A stretch of 64,000 nt of DNA from Octopus sinensis. Taxonomy: Eukaryota. The stretch lies in assembly GCF_006345805.1 (NCBI RefSeq), contig NC_043000.1, forward strand, positions 67,456,001 to 67,520,000, read 5' to 3'. Positions 538 to 57,181 of this stretch are shown here, piece by piece (positions within the stretch are counted from its first letter, which is position 1; every line of letters starts with the position of its first letter). The translations under genes were made by a program, and so were the position numbers. A model generated the notes under the pieces. The model was not told the origin of the DNA. It saw nothing but the letters and a program-made list of their open reading frames with translations, and made no database searches.

Positions 538-918
538 TTATTATTATTATTATTAATATTATTATTATTATTGAGTGAGAGAACAGTTCATGCCATCAAA
601 GTGACACCGGGGTAAAATATACGAAGCCCAATATACCCATCATGACTACCCGTCTGATAAAGGTACACCAGGCACGTGCATCACAACCATATGTGCGCGA
701 CATGGTGATCTCATATCAAGATAAACAGCACATGACCTTGCAGGTGGGGCCCAGTTAGAATTTTCTTCAGGTTGAGTAGCCCATCCCGCTCAAAAGGTTC
801 CTGAATAAGGGTTGTTTAAGAATGTTGAAAGAACCACCCATGTTTCCAGAGGTGAATTATTCAAACCCTAAAGAATCCCTCTCAACACATGGCTATGATG
901 CTCCCCCACTACTTCTGC

Positions 919-997
<79 letters not shown>

Positions 998-32062: not shown

Positions 32063-32123
<61 letters not shown>

Positions 32124-32126
<3 letters not shown>

Positions 32127-33196
32127 CTCTGAGGACTGGATGTTAAAACTTGTCTCAAAACATGAAAACAAGAAAGCATCATACTCAGTAACAAAACAAG
32201 CAAAGGAATATCTAAGTGAATTCCGAATACAACAAATTTCGGAATTAGAGATAGACACAAGAAACAGGCACAGAAAAAGCTAAGCGCATGAAAACCCGTG
32301 CTAAATCTGCGGCCTTAGATATTCTGAATGATAAATGGCAAGAAAAACCTCTCTATGGCAAATACCCAAAGAGAGCAAATAATGCAGATGTTGACAAAGC
32401 CCTGACCCACCAATAGCTAATGGCCTCTGGCTTAAAATCTGAAACAGAGGGGTTTATCATAGCAGCTCAAGATCAATGCCTACCAACAAGAAACTACCAG
32501 GCCAACATATTAAAGATCAGAAGCAGTCCAACGTGTCGTGTATGCAAGCAACAAAATGAAACCATTGACCATGTGGTCTCCAAGTGCAGTCTTCTAGCGC
32601 CTACAGAGTATCTCAACAGGCACGATAGAGCTGCACAATATATTCACTGGGTAATCTGTAAAAACCTGGATTTGCCCCATGAAAAAAACTGGTGGGAACA
32701 CAAACCACCCCCAGTGCTTGAAAATGACCACATCTCACTCCTCTGGAACTTCACCATTCAAACTGACAGAAAGATAGATGCAAATAGGCCAGACATCATA
32801 TTGAAAGACTTCAAACAAAGAACATGCCTCCTCATTGATATGACTGTCCCAATCCATATAAACGTATCTGTCAAGACCTACCAGAAACTGAGCAAATATA
32901 AAGATCTTGAAATAGAAATCAGCAAAATGTGGAAGCTGAAGACTAAAACAATACCTGTTGTCATAGGTGCCCTGGGAATGATAGCAAAAGGGGCTGATAG
33001 CTACCTAACTCAGATACCAGAAAACCCAAAAATGGTTTTTTTTTTTTAGACATTCATTAGTACAACATCCCCACCCCCCAAATATATGGCACACTAGGCA
33101 TAACAACAACATGAACTTCCAACCCTGTTGTCTGTTGAGGTCTCTGGGTGAGACTTGGAGCCAACTTGTACAAATATAAAGCAAAAGTCAAACATA

Positions 33197-33197
<1 letters not shown>
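32124..33197 (+). mobile_element. R4/Dong-type RLE LINE, family D1, 5'-truncated copy 1
   Basis: ORF 32420-33049 has ETEGFIIAAQDQ, the CCHC knuckle CRVC..ETIDHVVSKC, RHD, RLE NRPDII..LLIDMTVP..KLSKY and PVVIGALG. The 3' UTR ends agtcaaacatag(aat)n, and (AAT)n lies on both sides. Confidence 0.92.
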
Positions 33198-33265
<68 letters not shown>

Positions 33266-33420
33266 GTTTATCTTGATATGAGATCACCATGTCGCGCACA
33301 TATGGTTGTGATGCATGTGCCTGGTGTACCTTTATCAGACGGGTAGTCATGATGGGTATATTGGGCTTCGTATATTTTACCCCAGTGTCACTTTGATGGC
33401 ATGAACTGCTCTCTCACTCA
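33266..33420 (+). mobile_element. 555-bp element, 5'-truncated copy B (155 bp)
   Basis: Near-identical to 33863-34017 and flanked by (AAT)n. Confidence 0.92.
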
Positions 33421-33462
33421 ATAATAATAATGATAATAATAATAATAATAATAATAATAAAT

Positions 33463-34017
33463 GCCCTGATGCAGTACCAGACAGTGGCTCTCATGGCTTC
33501 TCATCTTAACTGATTGGAAGTGTTATCATGTACATTGTTTTGTCTTGGTATAAAAGATGGGCTACAGCAAATATTCTGCTCAATACCACAGATTTGCTTG
33601 TCAGTTGTTTGACCTTAACCAGTTGAGCATGTCCCTTAGTGGCTGACGATATGTGCATCTCTGATCACGAGCAGAAGTAGTGGGGGAGCATCATAGCCAT
33701 GTGTTGAGAGGGATTCTTTGGGGTTTGAATAGTTCACCTCTGAAAACATGGGTGGCTCTTTCAACATCCTTAAGCAACCCTTATTCAGGGACCGTTTGAG
33801 CGGGATGGGCTACTCAACCTGAAGAAAATTCTAACTGGGCCCCACCTGCAAGGTCATGTGCTGTTTATCTTGATATGAGATCACCATGTCGCGCACATAT
33901 GGTTGTGATGCATGTGCCTGATGTACCTTTATCAGACGGGTAGTCATGATGGGTATATTGGGCTTCGTATATTTTACCCCAGTGTCACTTTGATGGCATG
34001 AACTGCTCTCTCACTCA
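33463..34017 (+). mobile_element. 555-bp non-coding element, full-length copy C
   Basis: Runs gccctgatgcagtaccag...ctctcactca, colinear with and the same length as 55769-56323, flanked by (AAT)n. Confidence 0.92.
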
Positions 34018-34033
34018 ATAATAATAATAATAA

Positions 34034-34669
34034 TAATTTGCAAAAACTGGACTTGCCCCATGATAAAAACTGGTTGGAACAAAACTACCGCCAGTGCTTG
34101 AAAATGACCACATCTCACTCCTCGGGAACTTCACCATTCAAAATGACAGAAAGATAGACGCAAATAGGCCAGACATCATAGTAAAAGACTTCAGGCAAAA
34201 AACATGCCTCCTCATTGATATGACTGTCCCAATCCATATAAACGTATCTGTCAAAACCTACCAGAAACTGAGTAAATATAAAGATCTGGAAATAGAAATT
34301 AGCAAAATGTAGAACCTAAAGACTAAAACAATACCTGTTGTCATAGGTGCCCTGGGAATGATAGCAAAAGGGGCTGATTGCTACCTAACTCAGATACCAG
34401 GAAACCTCAAAACGGCAGAAATTCAAAAGATAGTGCTCATGGGAACTGCTCATATCCTACGCAAAATACTTTCTATGTAATCTCAAGGTTTAAAACAAAC
34501 ATAATTTTCGTATGGCTTTTTAGGCATTCACTAGTACAACACTAAGTACAAAACCAAATATATGGCACCCTAGGCATATCACCAACATGAACTTCCAACT
34601 TGTTGTCTCTTGAGGTCTCTGGGTGAGACTTGGAGCCAGCTTGTGCAAATGTAAAGCAAAAGTCAAACA

Positions 34670-34758: not shown

Positions 34759-35050
<292 letters not shown>

Positions 35051-35067
35051 TTAATAATAATAATAAC

Positions 35068-35232: not shown

Positions 35233-36041
35233 CGCAAAAGAAATATCCCAGCAATGGTTGAGAAGCTCAGGGCTCAAAGCAGAAACAGAGGGATTTTTAA
35301 TTGCAGCACAAGACCAAAGCCTCCCCACCAGAAATTACCAAAAACATGTAATGAAAAGAAATATTACAAGTAACTGCAGAATATGTGGAGATGGACAAGA
35401 AACAATAAATCATATTATCTCTAGCTGCCCAGTCCTGGCTAAGAAGGAATATATTCACAGACATGACAGAGTTGGAACCTACATACATTGGAAGCTATGC
35501 CAACATTATGGAATAACAACAGAAAAAAGATGGTATAGGCACACACCAGAAAAGGTCACAGAAAACGAGAAAGCAACCATACTCTGGGATATGCCGATAC
35601 ACACAGATAGAGAAATTAAGGCCAACAGACCAGATATAGTTGTCAGAGATCATGAAGAAAAAAAATGCTTTCTAATTGATGTATCAATACCGGCAGATGA
35701 CAACGTGTCTCTAAAAGAAATGGAGAAACTTTCAAAATACAAAGACCTGGAAATAGAGGTAACCAGAATGTGGAATCTAAAAACAGAAACAATTCCTATC
35801 ATAGTAGGTGCATTAGGCATGGTAAAAAAATATTCAGACAAATACATAACAAAAACACCAGGACTTACAAACACATATAACATACAGAAATTTGCACTAC
35901 TAGGCACTGCACACATCCTACGCAGAACACTTTCCATACAATAACCATCAGAGCATCACAACAAATCACAGCACATACCCAAGGCACACAGAGCTGCGCT
36001 CGGTAGTGAAGTGAAAGCACGCTATAAAAATAAAACTACTG
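35231..36041 (+). mobile_element. RLE LINE family D2, 5'-truncated copy with uninterrupted C-terminal ORF (stop at 35942-35944)
   Basis: ETEGFLIAAQDQ, CRIC..ETINHIISSC, RHD, NRPDIV..LIDVSIP..EKLSKY, PIIVGALG and LLGTAHILR with no stops. Distinct 3' UTR ending aaaactactg(aat)n. Confidence 0.94.
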
Positions 36042-36060
36042 AATAATAATAATAATAATA

Positions 36061-38000
36061 GTCCTTTCTACTTTGAACAGTGACAATGAATAATTCTTTC
36101 ACTTTGAACAATGACCATGAATCTCTCAATGCTGGAGATGTAAGAATTTCATGTGGCATTTTCCAGGGTGACTCTGTCACCACTCCTCTTTTGTCTAGCC
36201 TTAATACCTCTCTCGAAATTGCTCGATGATGTACAATATGGCTGTAAAATATTTGATAAAAATATAAATCATCTCTTTTACATGGATGATTTAAAGCACT
36301 TTGCAAAAAATGATCAACTGCAGGGCTTACTGTTAAACACTTCAGTGATGACATCAGAATGCATTTTGGCGTCGATAAATGTGCAAAAGCTACTTTTATC
36401 AAAGGAAAAATTATAGAAACATCCAACGTTAATCTTGACCAACTAAATGTCATAAAAGAGTTAGAACCAGCTGCGAGCTGCAAATACTTAGGGGTATTTG
36501 AAGGTGATGGAATCAGACATTCAATAATGAGGGAAAGGATCAGAAAAGAAAGTTATCGCAGGGTTAGGGCAATACTCAAGACAGAGCTGAATGCAAGAAA
36601 CAGGATAGAAGCGATCAATACTTTAGCCATTCCAGTCATGGCTTACAGTTCCAATATTTTTCACTGGTCAGTTACTGAAATATGTAATCTTGACAGAAAA
36701 ATACGAAACCTGTATACAATGCATAGAATGCACCACCCTAAGACAGATATAGAACAACTTTACCTGCCAAGAAATTAGGGTAACCGTGTACTTTTACAAC
36801 TGAGATTAACAATAAAGATTGCCACAGTCGGCCTAAAACCTACCTGAAAAATTCCGATGACTGGTTGTTAAAACTTGTTTTAAAGCACGTAAACAAGAAA
36901 GCATCATACTCAGTAACAAAACAGGCAAAGAAATATCTGAATTTGGAATTCATTCCAAATACAACAAATCCCAGAATTTGACGTGCTGGAAACAAACACA
37001 GAAAAAGTTAAGCATATGAAAACCCGTGCTAAAACTGCTGCCTTAAATAGTCTTACTGATAAATGACAACAAAAATCTCTCATTGGCAAATACCCAAAGA
37101 AAGCTAATAATACCGATGTTGACAAAGCCCTCACTCATCAATGGTTAGTGTCTTCTGGCTTAAAATCAGAGACAGGAGGATTTATCATAGCAGCCTACAA
37201 GGTGCTACCAGGCCAACATATTAAAGAACGACAGTAGCCCAACATGTCGTGTATATAAACAACAAAATGAAACCATCGAATATGTTGTCACCATGTGCAG
37301 TCTTCTTGTGCCTACAGAGTATCTTAACAGGCATGATACAGTAGCACCAATATATCCGCTGAGTAATTTGCAAAACCTTGGACCTGCTCCGTGATAAAAA
37401 AAAAAGCTGGCGGGAACACAAACTACCTCCAGTCCTTGAAAATGACCACATCTCATTTCTCTGGAACTTCACCGTTCAAACTGACAGAAAGATAGATGCG
37501 AATAGGCCAGACGTTATATTGAAGGACTTCAGACAAAAATTATGCCTCCTCATCGATATGACTGATATACATATTGACATATATGTATCTGTCAAGACCT
37601 ACCAAAAACTGAGCAAAGATAAAGATTTTGAACTAGAAATTGGCAAAATGTGGAACCTCAAGACTAGAACAATACTTAATGTCATAAGTGCTTTGGGAAT
37701 GATAGAAAAAGGAGCTGATTGCAACCTAGTTCAGATAACAAGAAATCCAAAGACGGTAGAAATTCAAAAAAATAGTGCACATGGGAACTACCCATATCCT
37801 ACATAAAATACTATGTAATCTCAAATTTTAAAACAAACATAACTTTCTTATGTTTTCTTAAGCATTCTCTAGTATGATACTTTGTGCAAAACCAAGTATG
37901 TGGCACCCTAGTCATAACATCAACTTGAACTTCTAACTTATTGTCCCTTGAGGTCTCTGGGTGAGTCAACTTGTACAAATACAAAGCAAATATCAAACAT
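36061..38000 (+). mobile_element. RLE LINE family D1, copy 3 (RT C-terminal half to 3' UTR, frameshifted)
   Basis: GIFQGD, LSPLLFCLALIPLS, HLFYMDDLK, FGVDKCA, KYLG, HHPKTDIEQLYLPR and the RLE domain, with the same 3' UTR as copies 1 and 2. Confidence 0.92.
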
Positions 38001-38010
38001 ATAATACAAT

Positions 38011-38179
38011 GCCCTGATGCAGTACCGGGCAGTGGCTCTCATGGCTTTTGATCTTAACTGATTGAAAGTGTTTCATGCACATGTTTTGTCTTGGTATAAA
38101 AGATGGGCTACCATACCACAGATTTACTTGTCAGTTGTCTGACCTTAAACAGTTGAGCATGTCCTTTATTGGCCGACGA
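38011..38179 (+). mobile_element. 555-bp element, 5' portion only (copy D)
   Basis: Begins aat|gccctgatgcagtacc like copy C, has a small internal deletion, and breaks off at the (GAA)n tract. Confidence 0.85.
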
Positions 38180-38181
38180 AA

Positions 38182-38307
38182 GAAGAAGAAGAAGAAGAAG
38201 AAGAAGAAGAAGAAGAAGAAGAAGAAGAAGAAGAAGAAGAAGAAGAAGAAGAAGAAGAAGAAGAAGAAGAAGAAGAAGAAGAAGAAGAAGAAGAAGAAGA
38301 AGAAGAA
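38182..38307. repeat. Perfect (GAA)42 tract
   Basis: 126 bp, uninterrupted. Confidence 0.95.
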
Positions 38308-40101
38308 TATACAGAAACCTGAGCATAGCATGGGTTGACTATCGTAAAGCATACGATATGATACCACACTCCCGAATAATAAAAAGAATGGAAATGCATG
38401 GAGTAGTAGAAAATATCGGAAGCCTTATATGGAATAGCATGAAATTCTGGAAAACGGAATTGCCAACAGGGAATCAAGTATTAGGAGAGGGGAAAATCAA
38501 GAGAGGTATATTCCAGGGAGACAGTGTGTCCCCACCGATCTTCGAAGAGGTAAGGAAAAACTGATCCTTTTGCTATTCATGGACGACCTGAAGCTATTCA
38601 CAAAAACTGAGACAGAACTGGACAGCCTAGTCCAGTCTGTGCGGATTTTCCCCAATGATATTAAGATGGAATTTGGACTCTCAAAATGTGCTACGATGGT
38701 GATGAGACTAGGAACGCTTTTCTGAACAGAAGACATAGGGTTGCCAAGTGATGAAATGATGAAGGCAATTCAACCTCAATCCAGCTATGAATACCGCGGA
38801 ATACTTGAGGCAGATGAAATTAAGCACAATGACATGAAAGAAAAAAAGATAAAAAGTGAGCACCTGCGGCGAATGAGGAAAATATTGGCTTCAAAGCTAA
38901 ATACGAGAAACTTAATTTCAGCAATAAACTCGCGCGCGCGTAGTCGCAGTAGTTCGGTATGGCGCTGGAATCCTGAAGTGGACAGAGGAGGGACCAACGG
39001 AGATAGACAGGAAGCCAAGAAAGCTTCTAACGATGCATGCTTCCCATCATCCACGTGCGGACACTGATCGCCTATGCATGAAGAGAGCAAATGCAGGAAG
39101 AGGACTGATAAGTGTGGAAGGCTGCGTGCTTACTGAACTCGAGAGCATAATGAGATACCTGGCCCAAAGTAACGAAACCTTGCTAGTGACAGTTAGGAAC
39201 GAGGGAATATTGAAAGCAGAGAAAGGGGGAAACAAAAGAAGCGCAAAAAGGACATGAAGAAGAATTACGCAAGAAGGGACTATACAATCAATTCCATGCG
39301 GCTACAATAGAAGTTGCTGGAAAAAAATAGGTGGGATTGGCTGATGAAAGTAACACTAAAGAAAGAGACCGAAAACACTATACTGACAGCTCAAGACCAA
39401 GTTTTGGCCACGAACTGGAGGGTCAACTTTAGGAGTGAGCAAGTGTCTTCGCTGTACCGCATCTGCAATAGAGTTGATGAAATCATTGCCCATATCACGA
39501 ACGAATGCACTAGACTTGCCCAAAAGCAACTACAAGTTGTGGCAACACGATCAGGTAGAGAAAGTGCTACATCGGAAACTGTGCTAAAAGTGGGGGTTAA
39601 AGAGAGGCAATACCTGGTATGAGTACTAACCGCAGAAAGTGGCGGAGACTAGCAAAATCCTCTGGGATTTCCCAATCCAAACAGATCAGGTGCTAGAGCA
39701 TAACAGAGCGGACCTAGTGGTGGTGGACAAGGTGCACCACATATGCTATATAGTTGATGTTGCATGTCCCTTTGACCCACGAATAGTCAAGATGGAAGGT
39801 GAAAAGATAGATAAATATAACCCTTTTAAGTACTAAATAGCCCGGCTATGGAAAATGAAGGAAGTGAAGATAGTGACAATTATTGTTGGGTCCAGAAGGC
39901 ATCAAGGGGAATATAAAGGAAAGTGGAATAGAGTGTTCAGTAGAACTGTTACAAAAAGTTTGCCTTCTTGGCCCGGCTAGAATAATCAGGAAAATATTAG
40001 ATAGCTGAAAAGAATGGATAGCATGGTACCGTAGACCGCAGGTAGCAAACCCGCTACGCACGTAAGACTCCAGGTGTTCTAACAAAACCTGTGATAAAGA
40101 A
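38308..40101 (+). mobile_element. RLE LINE family D3 (RT to 3' UTR, frameshifted)
   Basis: NLSIAWVDYRKAYD, GIFQGDSVSP, LFMDDLKLF, HHPRADTDRL, ETENTILTAQDQ and ILWDFPIQTD..HNRADLV..IVDVACP..EKIDKY, ending in a short AAT tail. Confidence 0.9.
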
Positions 40102-44769: not shown

Positions 44770-45900
44770 CGATTTTTGTTTTTAAGATTTGGCAGAGAGT
44801 AAGTAAACTAGAGTGGAAACCAACGATGAGTCAAAGGCTCGAGGAAAAAGAAAATAAATCTGATTTTAACAGCACAAGACTAACAAGTAGCTAAAAATAA
44901 CTATAAGCTAATGAAATAATGAAATAAAAACTAACATGAAGTACGGACTTATGCAACCAATACGAGAAGTTGATCATATGAGGTTTGATCAACCAGTTCT
45001 TGCTGAATCCAAGTTTAATTACAGACATGAACAAGCCGGCGTCTACGTTCACTGCACAATATACTGACAACTTAACGTGTAGAAGGATAAGAAAAAACTT
45101 GCATAAACTCCAACAACATACGGCATACTATAACTACTTTGCCACCATCACCCAAAACATGCTTATTGCGATTGTCAAGGAGATAATTCAAACAGTCCAG
45201 AGATAATAATCAAGAACAGGGTAAAATATGGTATGGTTGTACTGTATTAGGCATCACAAATCCTTTTCACTGAAATATTTATTCCTTTATTGCCCACAAG
45301 GGGCTAAACATAGAAATGACAAACAAGCACAGACAAATGGATTGAGTCGATTACATCGACACCAGCGCGTAACTGGTACTGATATAATCGACCCCGAAAG
45401 GATGAAAGGCAAAGTCGACCTCGACGGAATTTGAACTCAGAATGACACGGCATACGAAATACCTATTTCTATTTCTTTACTACCCACAAGGGGCTAAACA
45501 CAGAGAGGACAAACAAGAACAGACAAACGGATTAAGTCGATGTTATCGACCACAGTGCGTAACTGGTACTTATTTAATCGACCCCGAAAGGATGAAAGGC
45601 AAAGTCTACCTCGGCGGAATTTGAACTCAGAACGGCTACGCATTTCGCCCGGCGTGCTAACGTTTCTGCCAGCTCGCCGCCCTTTTTCACTTAAATATTG
45701 CATGAAAGGAAATAGAGGAACAACCAAAGCATAAGGACCTAGAAATAGAAATATGAAGGTAACACACATTCTTATGTAAATTTGGAATATTGTATATCAT
45801 AAAAAATATGAACAAAAATATACAATTATACAAGGTCATAACAGCTCGCTGTGTTAGGTACTGCCCATATCCTACACAAGACACTTTCAGTTCAACTACA
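44770..45900 (+). mobile_element. Decayed RLE-LINE 3' region interrupted by a SINE dimer
   Basis: LILTAQD-like motif at about 44860, NSPEIII at about 45190 (NRPDII position) and LGTAHIL at about 45855. Confidence 0.55.
45280..45681 (-). mobile_element. SINE S1 dimer with 16-bp TSD
   Basis: One headed unit plus one headless unit, flanked by ttttcact(g/t)aaatatt at 45264-45279 and 45684-45699. Confidence 0.88.
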
Positions 45901-55768: not shown

Positions 55769-56321
55769 TGAGTGAGAGAGCAGTGCATGCCATCAAAGTG
55801 ACACTGGGGTAAAATATACGAAGCCCAGGATACCCATCATGACTACCCGTCTGATAAGGGTACACTAGGCACATGCATCACAACCATATGTGCGCGACAT
55901 GGTGATCTCATATCAAAATAAACAGCACATGACCTTGCAGGTGGGGCCCAGTTAGAATTTTCTTCTGGTCGAGTAACCCATTCCACTCGAAAGGTCCCTG
56001 AATAAGGGTTGTTTAAGGATGTTGAACGAAACATCCATGTTTCCAGAGGTGAATTATTCAAACCCCAAAGAATCCCTCTCAACACATGGCTATGATGCTC
56101 CCCCACTACTTCTGTTCGTGATCAGAGATGCACATATCGTCAGCCACTAAGGGACATGCTCAACTGGTTAAAGTCAAACAACTGACAAGCAAATCTGTGG
56201 TATTGAGCAGAATATTTGCTGTAGCCCATCTTTTATACCAAGACAAAACAATGTACATGATAACATTTCCAATCAGTTAAGATCAGAAGCCATGAGAGCC
56301 ACTGCCTGGTACGGCATCAGG

Positions 56322-56323
<2 letters not shown>
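55769..56323 (-). mobile_element. 555-bp non-coding element, full-length copy E
   Basis: Reverse complement is colinear with 33463-34017, with (TTA)n on both sides. Confidence 0.92.
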
Positions 56324-56405: not shown

Positions 56406-57181
56406 GGCGGCGAGCTGAAAGAAATGTGTGCACGCCGGGCGAAATGCTTATCGGGGTTTCGTCTGCCGCTACGTTCTGAGTTCAAATTCCGCCGAGGTCC
56501 ACTTTGCCTTTCATCCTTTCGGGGTCGATTAAATAAGTACCAGTTACGCACTGGGGTCAATGCAATCGACTTAATATATTTGTCTGTCCTTGTTTGTTCC
56601 CTCTGTGTTTAGCCCCTTGTGGGTAGTAAAGAAACAGGTATTTCGTTACGTTCTCAGTTCAAATTCCGCCGAGGTCGACTTTGCTTTTCATCCTTTCGGG
56701 GTCGATAAATTAAGTACCAGTTACGCGCTAGGGCCGATGTAATCGACTTAATCCGTCTGTCTGTCCTTCTTTGTCCCCTTGTGTTTAGCCCCTTGTGGGT
56801 AGTAAGGAAATAGGCATTTCATCTGCCGCTACATTCTGAGGTATTTCGTATGCCGTTTCATTCTGAGTGTAAATTCCGTCGAGGTCGACTTTGACTTTCA
56901 TCCTTTCGGGGTCGATTAAATAAGTACCAGTTACGCACTGGGGTTGATATAACCGACTTAATCCGTTTATCTGTCCTTGTTTGTCCTCTCTGTGTTTAGC
57001 CCCTAGTGGGTAGTAAAGAAATAGGTATTTCGTCTGCCACTACGTTCTAAATTCCGCCGAGGTTAACTTTGCATCTCATCCTTTCGGGGTCGATAAATTA
57101 AGTACCAGTTGGGTACTGGAGTCGATCTAATCGACTAGCCCCTCCCCTAAAATTTCACGTCTTGTGTCTATAATAGAAAGG
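56406..57181 (+). mobile_element. SINE S1 tandem tetramer
   Basis: One headed unit (56406-~56638), headless units starting at about 56639, 56840 and 57025, and a different tail plus (ATT)n on the last unit. Confidence 0.9.

Follow-up and report, generated by a model that had tools for sequence, protein, structure and literature searches.

The SINE EhSINE1 of Entamoeba histolytica is a non-coding element of about 500-600 nt that depends on a LINE of the restriction-like endonuclease (RLE) type, its partner EhLINE1; in the parts of the published descriptions covered here, it has poor A and B boxes only and no known small-RNA precursor (PMC2996970, PMC1635306). The R2 SIDEs and R2/R1 hybrid SIDEs of Drosophila are short, non-autonomous and site-specific, use target-primed reverse transcription to move, and carry the 5' ribozyme and the 3' end of their LINE (PMC3414825). 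The LINE Dong of B. mori targets TAA repeats (PMC1635306), and an HDV-like ribozyme self-cleaves at its 5' end after these repeats (PMC3774820). Dong and Rex6, both R4-group LINEs, insert into TAA repeats, undergo 5' truncation and have (AAT)n on both sides. The octopus element described here resembles EhSINE1 in being about 550 nt long with no small-RNA precursor recognised. However, EhSINE1 has a 3' end of about 70 bp in common with its LINE and, as far as the covered parts of these sources go, no specific target, whereas the octopus element is targeted to (AAT)n and has no detected shared end. It also differs from the SIDEs, since neither a LINE ribozyme nor a LINE 3' end was found in this family of at least 15,000 copies, and from Dong and Rex6, which are autonomous and coding; the HDV-like 5' ribozyme of B. 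mori Dong was not found in it. Judged by sequence comparison with the LINE families sampled, the nearest known counterpart of the element appears to be EhSINE1, minus its LINE-shared tail. We interpret it as a real, abundant and recently amplified non-coding retroposon, SINE-like and without a tRNA head, that would be mobilised in trans by Dong-type RT/RLE proteins, and we put the probability of this reading at roughly 70%.

Octopus tRNA-derived SINEs are known under the names OK, OR1 and OR2. Octopus tRNA SINEs have also been described as tRNA-Core and tRNA-Deu (PMC8967140). Like the element, they are short, abundant, non-coding and adjacent to the same microsatellite. The tRNA-headed SINE of the genome studied here has visible A and B boxes and the opposite polarity; the element has no such head. 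For O. vulgaris a bin of 'unclassified SINE' with 1,279 consensus sequences and 250 Mb has been published (PMC13282606 supplement), for which the covered parts of that publication describe no partner, target or structure. Going by abundance, the element is probably already catalogued in such a library as an unnamed 'unclassified SINE'. A literature search, with Repbase, Dfam and SINEBase outside the comparison, returned no description of the family.

The window is the whole 64-kb stretch of Octopus sinensis DNA that was analysed. A BLAST search of it with positions 33463-34017 as the query recovered five copies and no more, all at the positions named in an earlier note made from the sequence alone. 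The young full-length copy lies at 33459-34017 on the plus strand; we number from 33459, the first A of a probably templated AAAT (nt 1-4), which gives an element of 559 nt by BLAST and its flanks. The 555 bp first reported for the full copies have a reproducible start and end, but the true copied unit is usually 559 nt long and includes the AAAT. The second full-length copy (55769-56323, minus strand, 95% identity) has an in-phase AAT/G junction according to BLAST and a junction script. Two further BLAST matches are 5'-truncated copies, one with nt 405-559 at 33266-33420 (plus strand, 99% identity) and one with nt 212-559 at 572-919 (minus strand), the latter lying within (AAT)n and adjoining a minus-strand D2-like fragment at 1-474. 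The fifth copy is a 5' fragment (38008-38179, plus strand, nt 2-191 with a 16-nt internal deletion, by BLAST); the abutment on a D1 3' end ascribed to it is confirmed, as it follows a D1-like 3' UTR; on its other side come (AAG)n and a further LINE. The motif ctctcactca(ata)n closes four of the five copies and three have a common 5' start, as first read. Stops interrupt all frames and no ORF is common to the copies, and the element ends show neither terminal inverted repeats nor a TA duplication; the lack of a shared ORF and of inverted repeats agrees with the original description. With its simple-repeat tail, fixed 3' end and 5' truncation this non-coding, non-autonomous element is SINE-like.

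D1 and D2 are two LINE families that we consider Dong-like on grounds given below. In the window a 5'-truncated D1 (32123-33200, plus strand, 97-99% identical to near-full-length D1) is linked by an (AAT)n tract (33198-33265, plus strand) to the truncated element copy, and the next tract (33420-33460, plus strand) serves both as the tail of that copy and as the upstream target of the full one. Immediately 3' of the element tail lies a 5'-truncated D1-like LINE (34034-34669, plus strand); a 5'-truncated D2 (35237-36038, plus strand, 98% identical to full-length D2) and an older D1-like fragment (36101-38005, plus strand, about 81%) are found further downstream. At 38180-40001, (AAG)43 precedes a 5'-truncated, distant RT/RLE LINE with about 35-43% protein identity to D1 and D2.

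The family is abundant far beyond the window. Exact 16-mers of the two element ends were counted in the 2.72-Gb assembly GCF_006345805.1, with 15,738 matches for the 3' end, 9,667 for the 5' end (reiterated 5' units counted too) and none for reversed control patterns. The 3' count is comparable to the 14,329 matches of a LINE C-terminal motif, which puts the element and its presumed hosts at a similar abundance. In a random sample of 60 fixed 10-kb stretches (600 kb) we obtained 18 alignments, of which three belong to a MITE discussed below and 15 represent 14 element copies in six of the stretches. The element makes up about 0.9% of these bases, and extrapolation from this 600-kb sample gives about 63,000 copies (bootstrap 14,000-127,000). 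All 40 scored genome matches to the full element are full-length with 99% identity, while unselected copies show 76-99% identity to a young copy. In age the copies extend from old ones, at about 76-90%, to very young ones, at 99%. Among 22 listed sequencing runs, 20, under eight organism labels, contain at least two thirds of the element's words, and run contigs under three organism labels hold variants of its subfamilies together with identical MITE borders.

The target site is equally clear. Of the matches to the 5' motif, 6,497 have AATAAT no more than 5 nt upstream and 54 have ATTATT there, both counts with some duplicates, and the embedding in (AAT)n with Dong polarity that was seen in the window therefore extends to the genome. 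Among the 13 random-sample copies with complete flanks, four are full, six 5'-truncated, one 3'-truncated and two truncated at both ends; together with the surplus of 3' over 5' 16-mers this bears out 5' truncation with a fixed 3' end. The ten copies with an intact 3' end are all followed by AAT and none by ATT, and seven of the ten have AAT upstream, compared with 4.2% of random positions (P = 2e-8). AAT also lies upstream of truncation points, which shows that (AAT)n serves as the target and not just as the tail. The survey of ends and flanks that the earlier note had proposed upholds the fixed 3' end and the (AAT)n polarity genome-wide. The 23 copies in loci selected for LINEs comprise seven full, ten 5'-truncated, five 3'-truncated and one truncated at both ends, and two of the five '3'-truncated' copies end less than 30 nt short with the terminal motif still visible. 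Target site duplications are unreadable inside a microsatellite. In 79 matches of the tRNA-headed SINE, ATT was found upstream in 13 and downstream in 13, and AAT in one and none, respectively; the polarity of the element is thus not common to all short repeats here. That SINE family occurs at 34863-35051 (minus strand) of the window and at many loci, its sense strand flanked by (ATT)n. A tRNA-type SINE body also forms two-unit tandem arrays at 45280-45632 and 56470-56820 (periods 190 and 177).

The candidate mobilisers share this target. Measured from stop to stop, the open frames of D2 and D1 span 1,226 and 1,286 codons, each a single ORF with RT, a CCHC motif and a restriction-like endonuclease but no APE, according to motifs read by eye and Pfam; Pfam itself reports RT and a weak zinc motif and no APE domain, and the five PDB matches of D2 are R2-type proteins only. 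Among matches of at least 90% identity, AAT lies upstream in 26 of 30 for D2 and 16 of 21 for D1, and the copies are 5'-truncated. From this domain layout and target site, on which the name rests, D1 and D2 are probably Dong-like RLE LINEs. In O. vulgaris, the LINEs with recent activity include Dong-R4 elements (PMC13282606), and 51 Dong-R4 consensus families are listed for this species (PMC13282606 supplement). The element has the same target, polarity and 5' duplications as D1 and D2, and it is from target, polarity and junction signatures that we infer a Dong protein as the likely copier.

The junctions at the 5' end give further information about the copied RNA. Among 92 distinct junctions, counted by eye in the first 100 matches listed for the 5' motif, 53 read AAAT/G, four AAAAT/G, 16 in-phase AAT/G and 19 otherwise. 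The junction script sorted 91 junctions of the examined loci into 30 AAAT, five in-phase, eight other linkers, 11 unclassed and 37 reiterated. A recurring extra A is impossible from a perfect target, and hence the AAAT is likely templated. Genome-wide, 951 matches have two 5' motifs within 30 nt, and some arrays reach ten or more units. In 13 parsed arrays the units are the first 14-31 nt counted from the G. Their 26 single-unit linkers (three further linkers that held a mutated unit were left out) read T, AT, AAT, AAAT, TAAAT or similar, and none contains (AAT)2, which indicates that the copied template stops 1-6 bases upstream of the G and excludes the upstream repeat. Two loci, C1:146292466-146292803 and C1:151424484-151424786, hold at least ten tandem copies of the 5'-most 18 nt with mixed linkers. 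Some arrays may have been extended by later slippage. Duplications of the 5' terminus are also seen in truncated LINEs, at 1 of 30 D2 and 1 of 21 D1 matches, compared with 4 of 67 for the element, a total that counts MITE matches too. In R2, second-strand priming has been described to use microhomology and untemplated bases (PMC2718515); the covered parts of that account do not mention reiterated element ends.

These junctions bear on an alternative in which the RNA is excised from read-through transcripts by a 5' ribozyme. B. mori Dong provides the precedent of 5' self-cleavage (PMC3774820), the element's 5' end is sharp and no promoter was identified. However, a strict HDV-like descriptor, run without a positive control, gave no match in three natural copies, and a lenient scan for ribozyme cores gave different matches in each copy and also matched 174 of 200 shuffled sequences. 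The Rfam search that had been suggested was run, with nothing credible for the element at E values up to 10 and 5. The D1 and D2 5' ends likewise lacked a strict HDV-like match, the D1 stretch scanned not being its true 5' end; the true end was covered by the lenient scan only. Moreover, what is copied ends upstream of the G; most junctions carry the probably templated AAAT, so that self-cleavage at AAT/G, as first suggested, is not borne out. We consider excision by a ribozyme unlikely. Of the two 5'-end determinants initially proposed, promoter or self-cleavage, elimination thus favours the promoter-set start. No A or B box with up to one mismatch was found on the sense strand of the first 75 nt. 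The initial statement that there is no clear B box therefore holds for this head; a B-like motif near nt 301 exists elsewhere and is lost in the young subfamily. Rfam and ARAGORN gave no relation of the head to tRNA, 7SL or 5S RNA; in a control, Rfam failed to recognise a decayed tRNA-headed SINE as well. With no tRNA-type head seen and no A/B box pair found in the head, the non-tRNA assignment appears to hold.

The absence of ends in common with a LINE is either a novelty or a sampling gap. R2 priming requires its 3' sequences, and R1 and R2 have been termed stringent (PMC3414825); a passenger without such ends is thus unexpected. Two full-length LINE families, D1 and D2, were available for comparing ends. 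BLASTN with word size 4 of the element against full-length D1 and D2 produced chance matches only, tblastx against them nothing below E 0.5, and a further 640 nt of D1 5' UTR no match. Among 82 LINE 3' ends in 11 clusters the sole match was an element copy abutting one of them, in line with the original observation that the 3' end does not resemble the D1, D2 and D3 UTRs. Hence the search for an autonomous RLE LINE with the ends of the element returned none among these sequences, and the proposed analogy to internally deleted R2 derivatives gains no support, as 5' and 3' sequence common to a LINE was not found. Within the families sampled, classification as a SIDE was rejected, since no 5' or 3' end common to D1 or D2, no HDV-like ribozyme and no overlap with the 82 LINE 3' ends was found; an origin from a LINE ORF was likewise rejected (tblastx E 0.5 or worse). 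A Dong family outside our sample, rarer or extinct, could have given rise to the element, by internal deletion or as a derivative that shares its tail. Such an origin is the usual one, as in the R2 SIDEs (PMC3414825), the overlap of about 70 bp between EhSINE1 and EhLINE1 sets a precedent (PMC2996970), many Dong families exist (PMC13282606), and nt 515-530 resemble one D3-type 3' UTR by eye. That likeness, however, is below BLAST significance, weak tblastx matches to RT motifs (E 0.5-0.7) do not have the spacing seen in the LINE, and contigs built from four runs around the last 138 nt led, at the best-supported of their listed loose ends, with 731 more beyond that list, only into the element's own upstream sequence. 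We therefore judge this derivation to be quite unlikely. If a partner with a shared tail appears, the element becomes an ordinary new SINE-like family.

The middle of the element has a history of its own. Nt 105-273 (33563-33731, plus strand, identified by sequence comparison) are found in antisense inside a MITE, beginning just inside its left repeat. This old MITE family is about 490 bp long and TA-flanked; its terminal inverted repeats are imperfect, measure about 110 bp and start with CACTG, and we take it to be Tc1-like. The segment is present in 29 of 30 unselected MITE sites, and exact 20-mer matches number 460. The element without the segment was matched once and the MITE without it not at all. 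Over the 169 nt, six positions separate a young element copy from the column majority of the MITE, while the 9.7% mean divergence of 29 MITE copies from that majority predicts 16.4 differences (Poisson P = 0.003). Thus the source lineage of the element appears to have evolved more slowly than neutral DNA, whichever the direction of transfer. One MITE allele is also found in the element, where 7 of 72 copies carry it. An argument for transfer from element to MITE, based on two CpGs missing from the MITE, was withdrawn because CpG transitions are only about 2.3 times the background and because a rough hand estimate lends that direction no support. None of 30 DDE_3 loci, examined for an autonomous Tc1 partner, contained MITE sequence. 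The element itself was rejected as a MITE, given its ends and the fact that only its middle is common to a true MITE. MITE loci include L096:2273-2712, L105, L128-L147 and L239-L268. The 5' reiterations, the middle shared with a MITE and the slow source lineage go beyond the earlier note.

A slow source could also be a host non-coding RNA gene under selection, by chance a good template for Dong, of which the copies would be retro-copies. Besides the deficit of differences to the MITE majority, this reading gains from the fact that old and young subfamily majorities differ at only 11 of 559 sites. On the other hand, slow source lineages are common in ordinary SINEs as well, for example in Alu, several subfamilies with diagnostic changes exist, no Rfam family was matched, and a search for the source locus, which was not exhaustive, did not find it. 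A host gene thus seems quite improbable as the source. Folding gives a mixed picture. The whole length folds mildly better than shuffled sequences (z -2.8), in weak support of the initial label 'structured', but 120-nt windows (z -2.5 to +0.9) stay within the range of comparison windows from a LINE ORF (z -3.7 to +1.4). Selection on RNA structure was rejected as an explanation, since the apparent preservation of base pairs in variants common to at least five copies (P = 0.001) vanished when transitions only were considered (P = 1.0).

Mobilisation by another enzyme, a Penelope-like element or an APE-type LINE, is suggested by Penelope-like fragments near AAT tracts (locus L032) and by the tRNA-headed SINE, whose opposite polarity points to a second machinery at these tracts. 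We regard it as very unlikely, as no hammerhead core with a fitting GAAA was found in the element, no link to a Penelope ORF was seen and the L032 fragment has one other match among the examined loci. Another repeat, at five loci (L101:4000-4300, L089, L182, L086 and L266), has a minus-strand hammerhead-like core, read by eye as CTGATGA...CGAAAC, and an embedded tRNA-like piece with (AAT)n after it, an arrangement that looks Penelope-related. Finally, a long LINE 3' UTR or a solo LTR, suggested by TG and CA at the ends and by LINE coding pieces that immediately precede truncated copies at L032 and L098, is refuted, because thousands of copies begin at one position after (AAT)n, the upstream LINE pieces come from different ORF parts, no common internal sequence follows any copy, a 4-6 bp duplication fitting the TG...CA reading is present in only 3 of 50 full copies, and truncation is polar.

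For a retroposon mobilised by Dong-type proteins the following course can be proposed. Transcription would likely begin at a start belonging to the element itself, on the A of AAAUGCCC or no more than two bases from it, from a putative promoter. A Dong-type protein would then nick the (ATT)n strand and prime on the RNA 3' end with its (AAU)n tail. With no LINE-shared 3' sequence found, recognition of the RNA would rest on this tail or on a short structural cue. In many cases copying stops early, giving the 5'-truncated copies that are observed. Towards the end of copying, the 5'-most 14-35 nt would sometimes be copied again and again, and the observed arrays may be caused by repeated restarts of second-strand synthesis or by template jumps. 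Every insertion keeps (AAT)n on both sides, so that element and LINE copies become stacked in single tracts, as we see.

A more specific version of this reading is possible, and we put it forward tentatively. A still-young, high-copy retroposon without a tRNA head or a LINE tail might capture a strict RLE machinery through its (AAU)n tail or a short mimic; its slow source would be in part a DNA transposon and maybe a host RNA gene, and its reiterations would reflect telomerase-like re-copying. Recognition of the ends of their own RNA is ascribed to RLE retrotransposons, R2 among them. If true, the element would reveal the minimal signal needed by RLE enzymes, which bears on R2-type gene insertion tools. 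At roughly 1% of the genome, it also helps to explain the repeat clusters centred on (AAT)n.

Several minor features of the LINEs were noted on the way. In full-length D1 (L124, L126, L127) the 5' UTR reaches at least about 900 nt. Two D1 copies begin with AAGGCGGCTGG, which resembles a tRNA-type SINE head, and one reaches about 95 nt further upstream. A GTAAGT splice-donor-like motif is present in the 5' UTRs of both D1 and D2, and at L127 and L053 full-length D1 and D2 have GGG, possibly untemplated, at the 5' junction. The 3' UTRs of D1-D4 show by eye a short layout of CC(C/T)(T/A)AGG, hairpin and a TCGG(C/T)RAG-like motif, a candidate for protein binding. At L045, L032/L030 and L098, and by eye only at L091, pieces of the element are joined to LINE coding or UTR sequence without an AAT spacer; such chimeras, which we leave out of the evidence, could stem from template jumps or from deletions between stacked copies.
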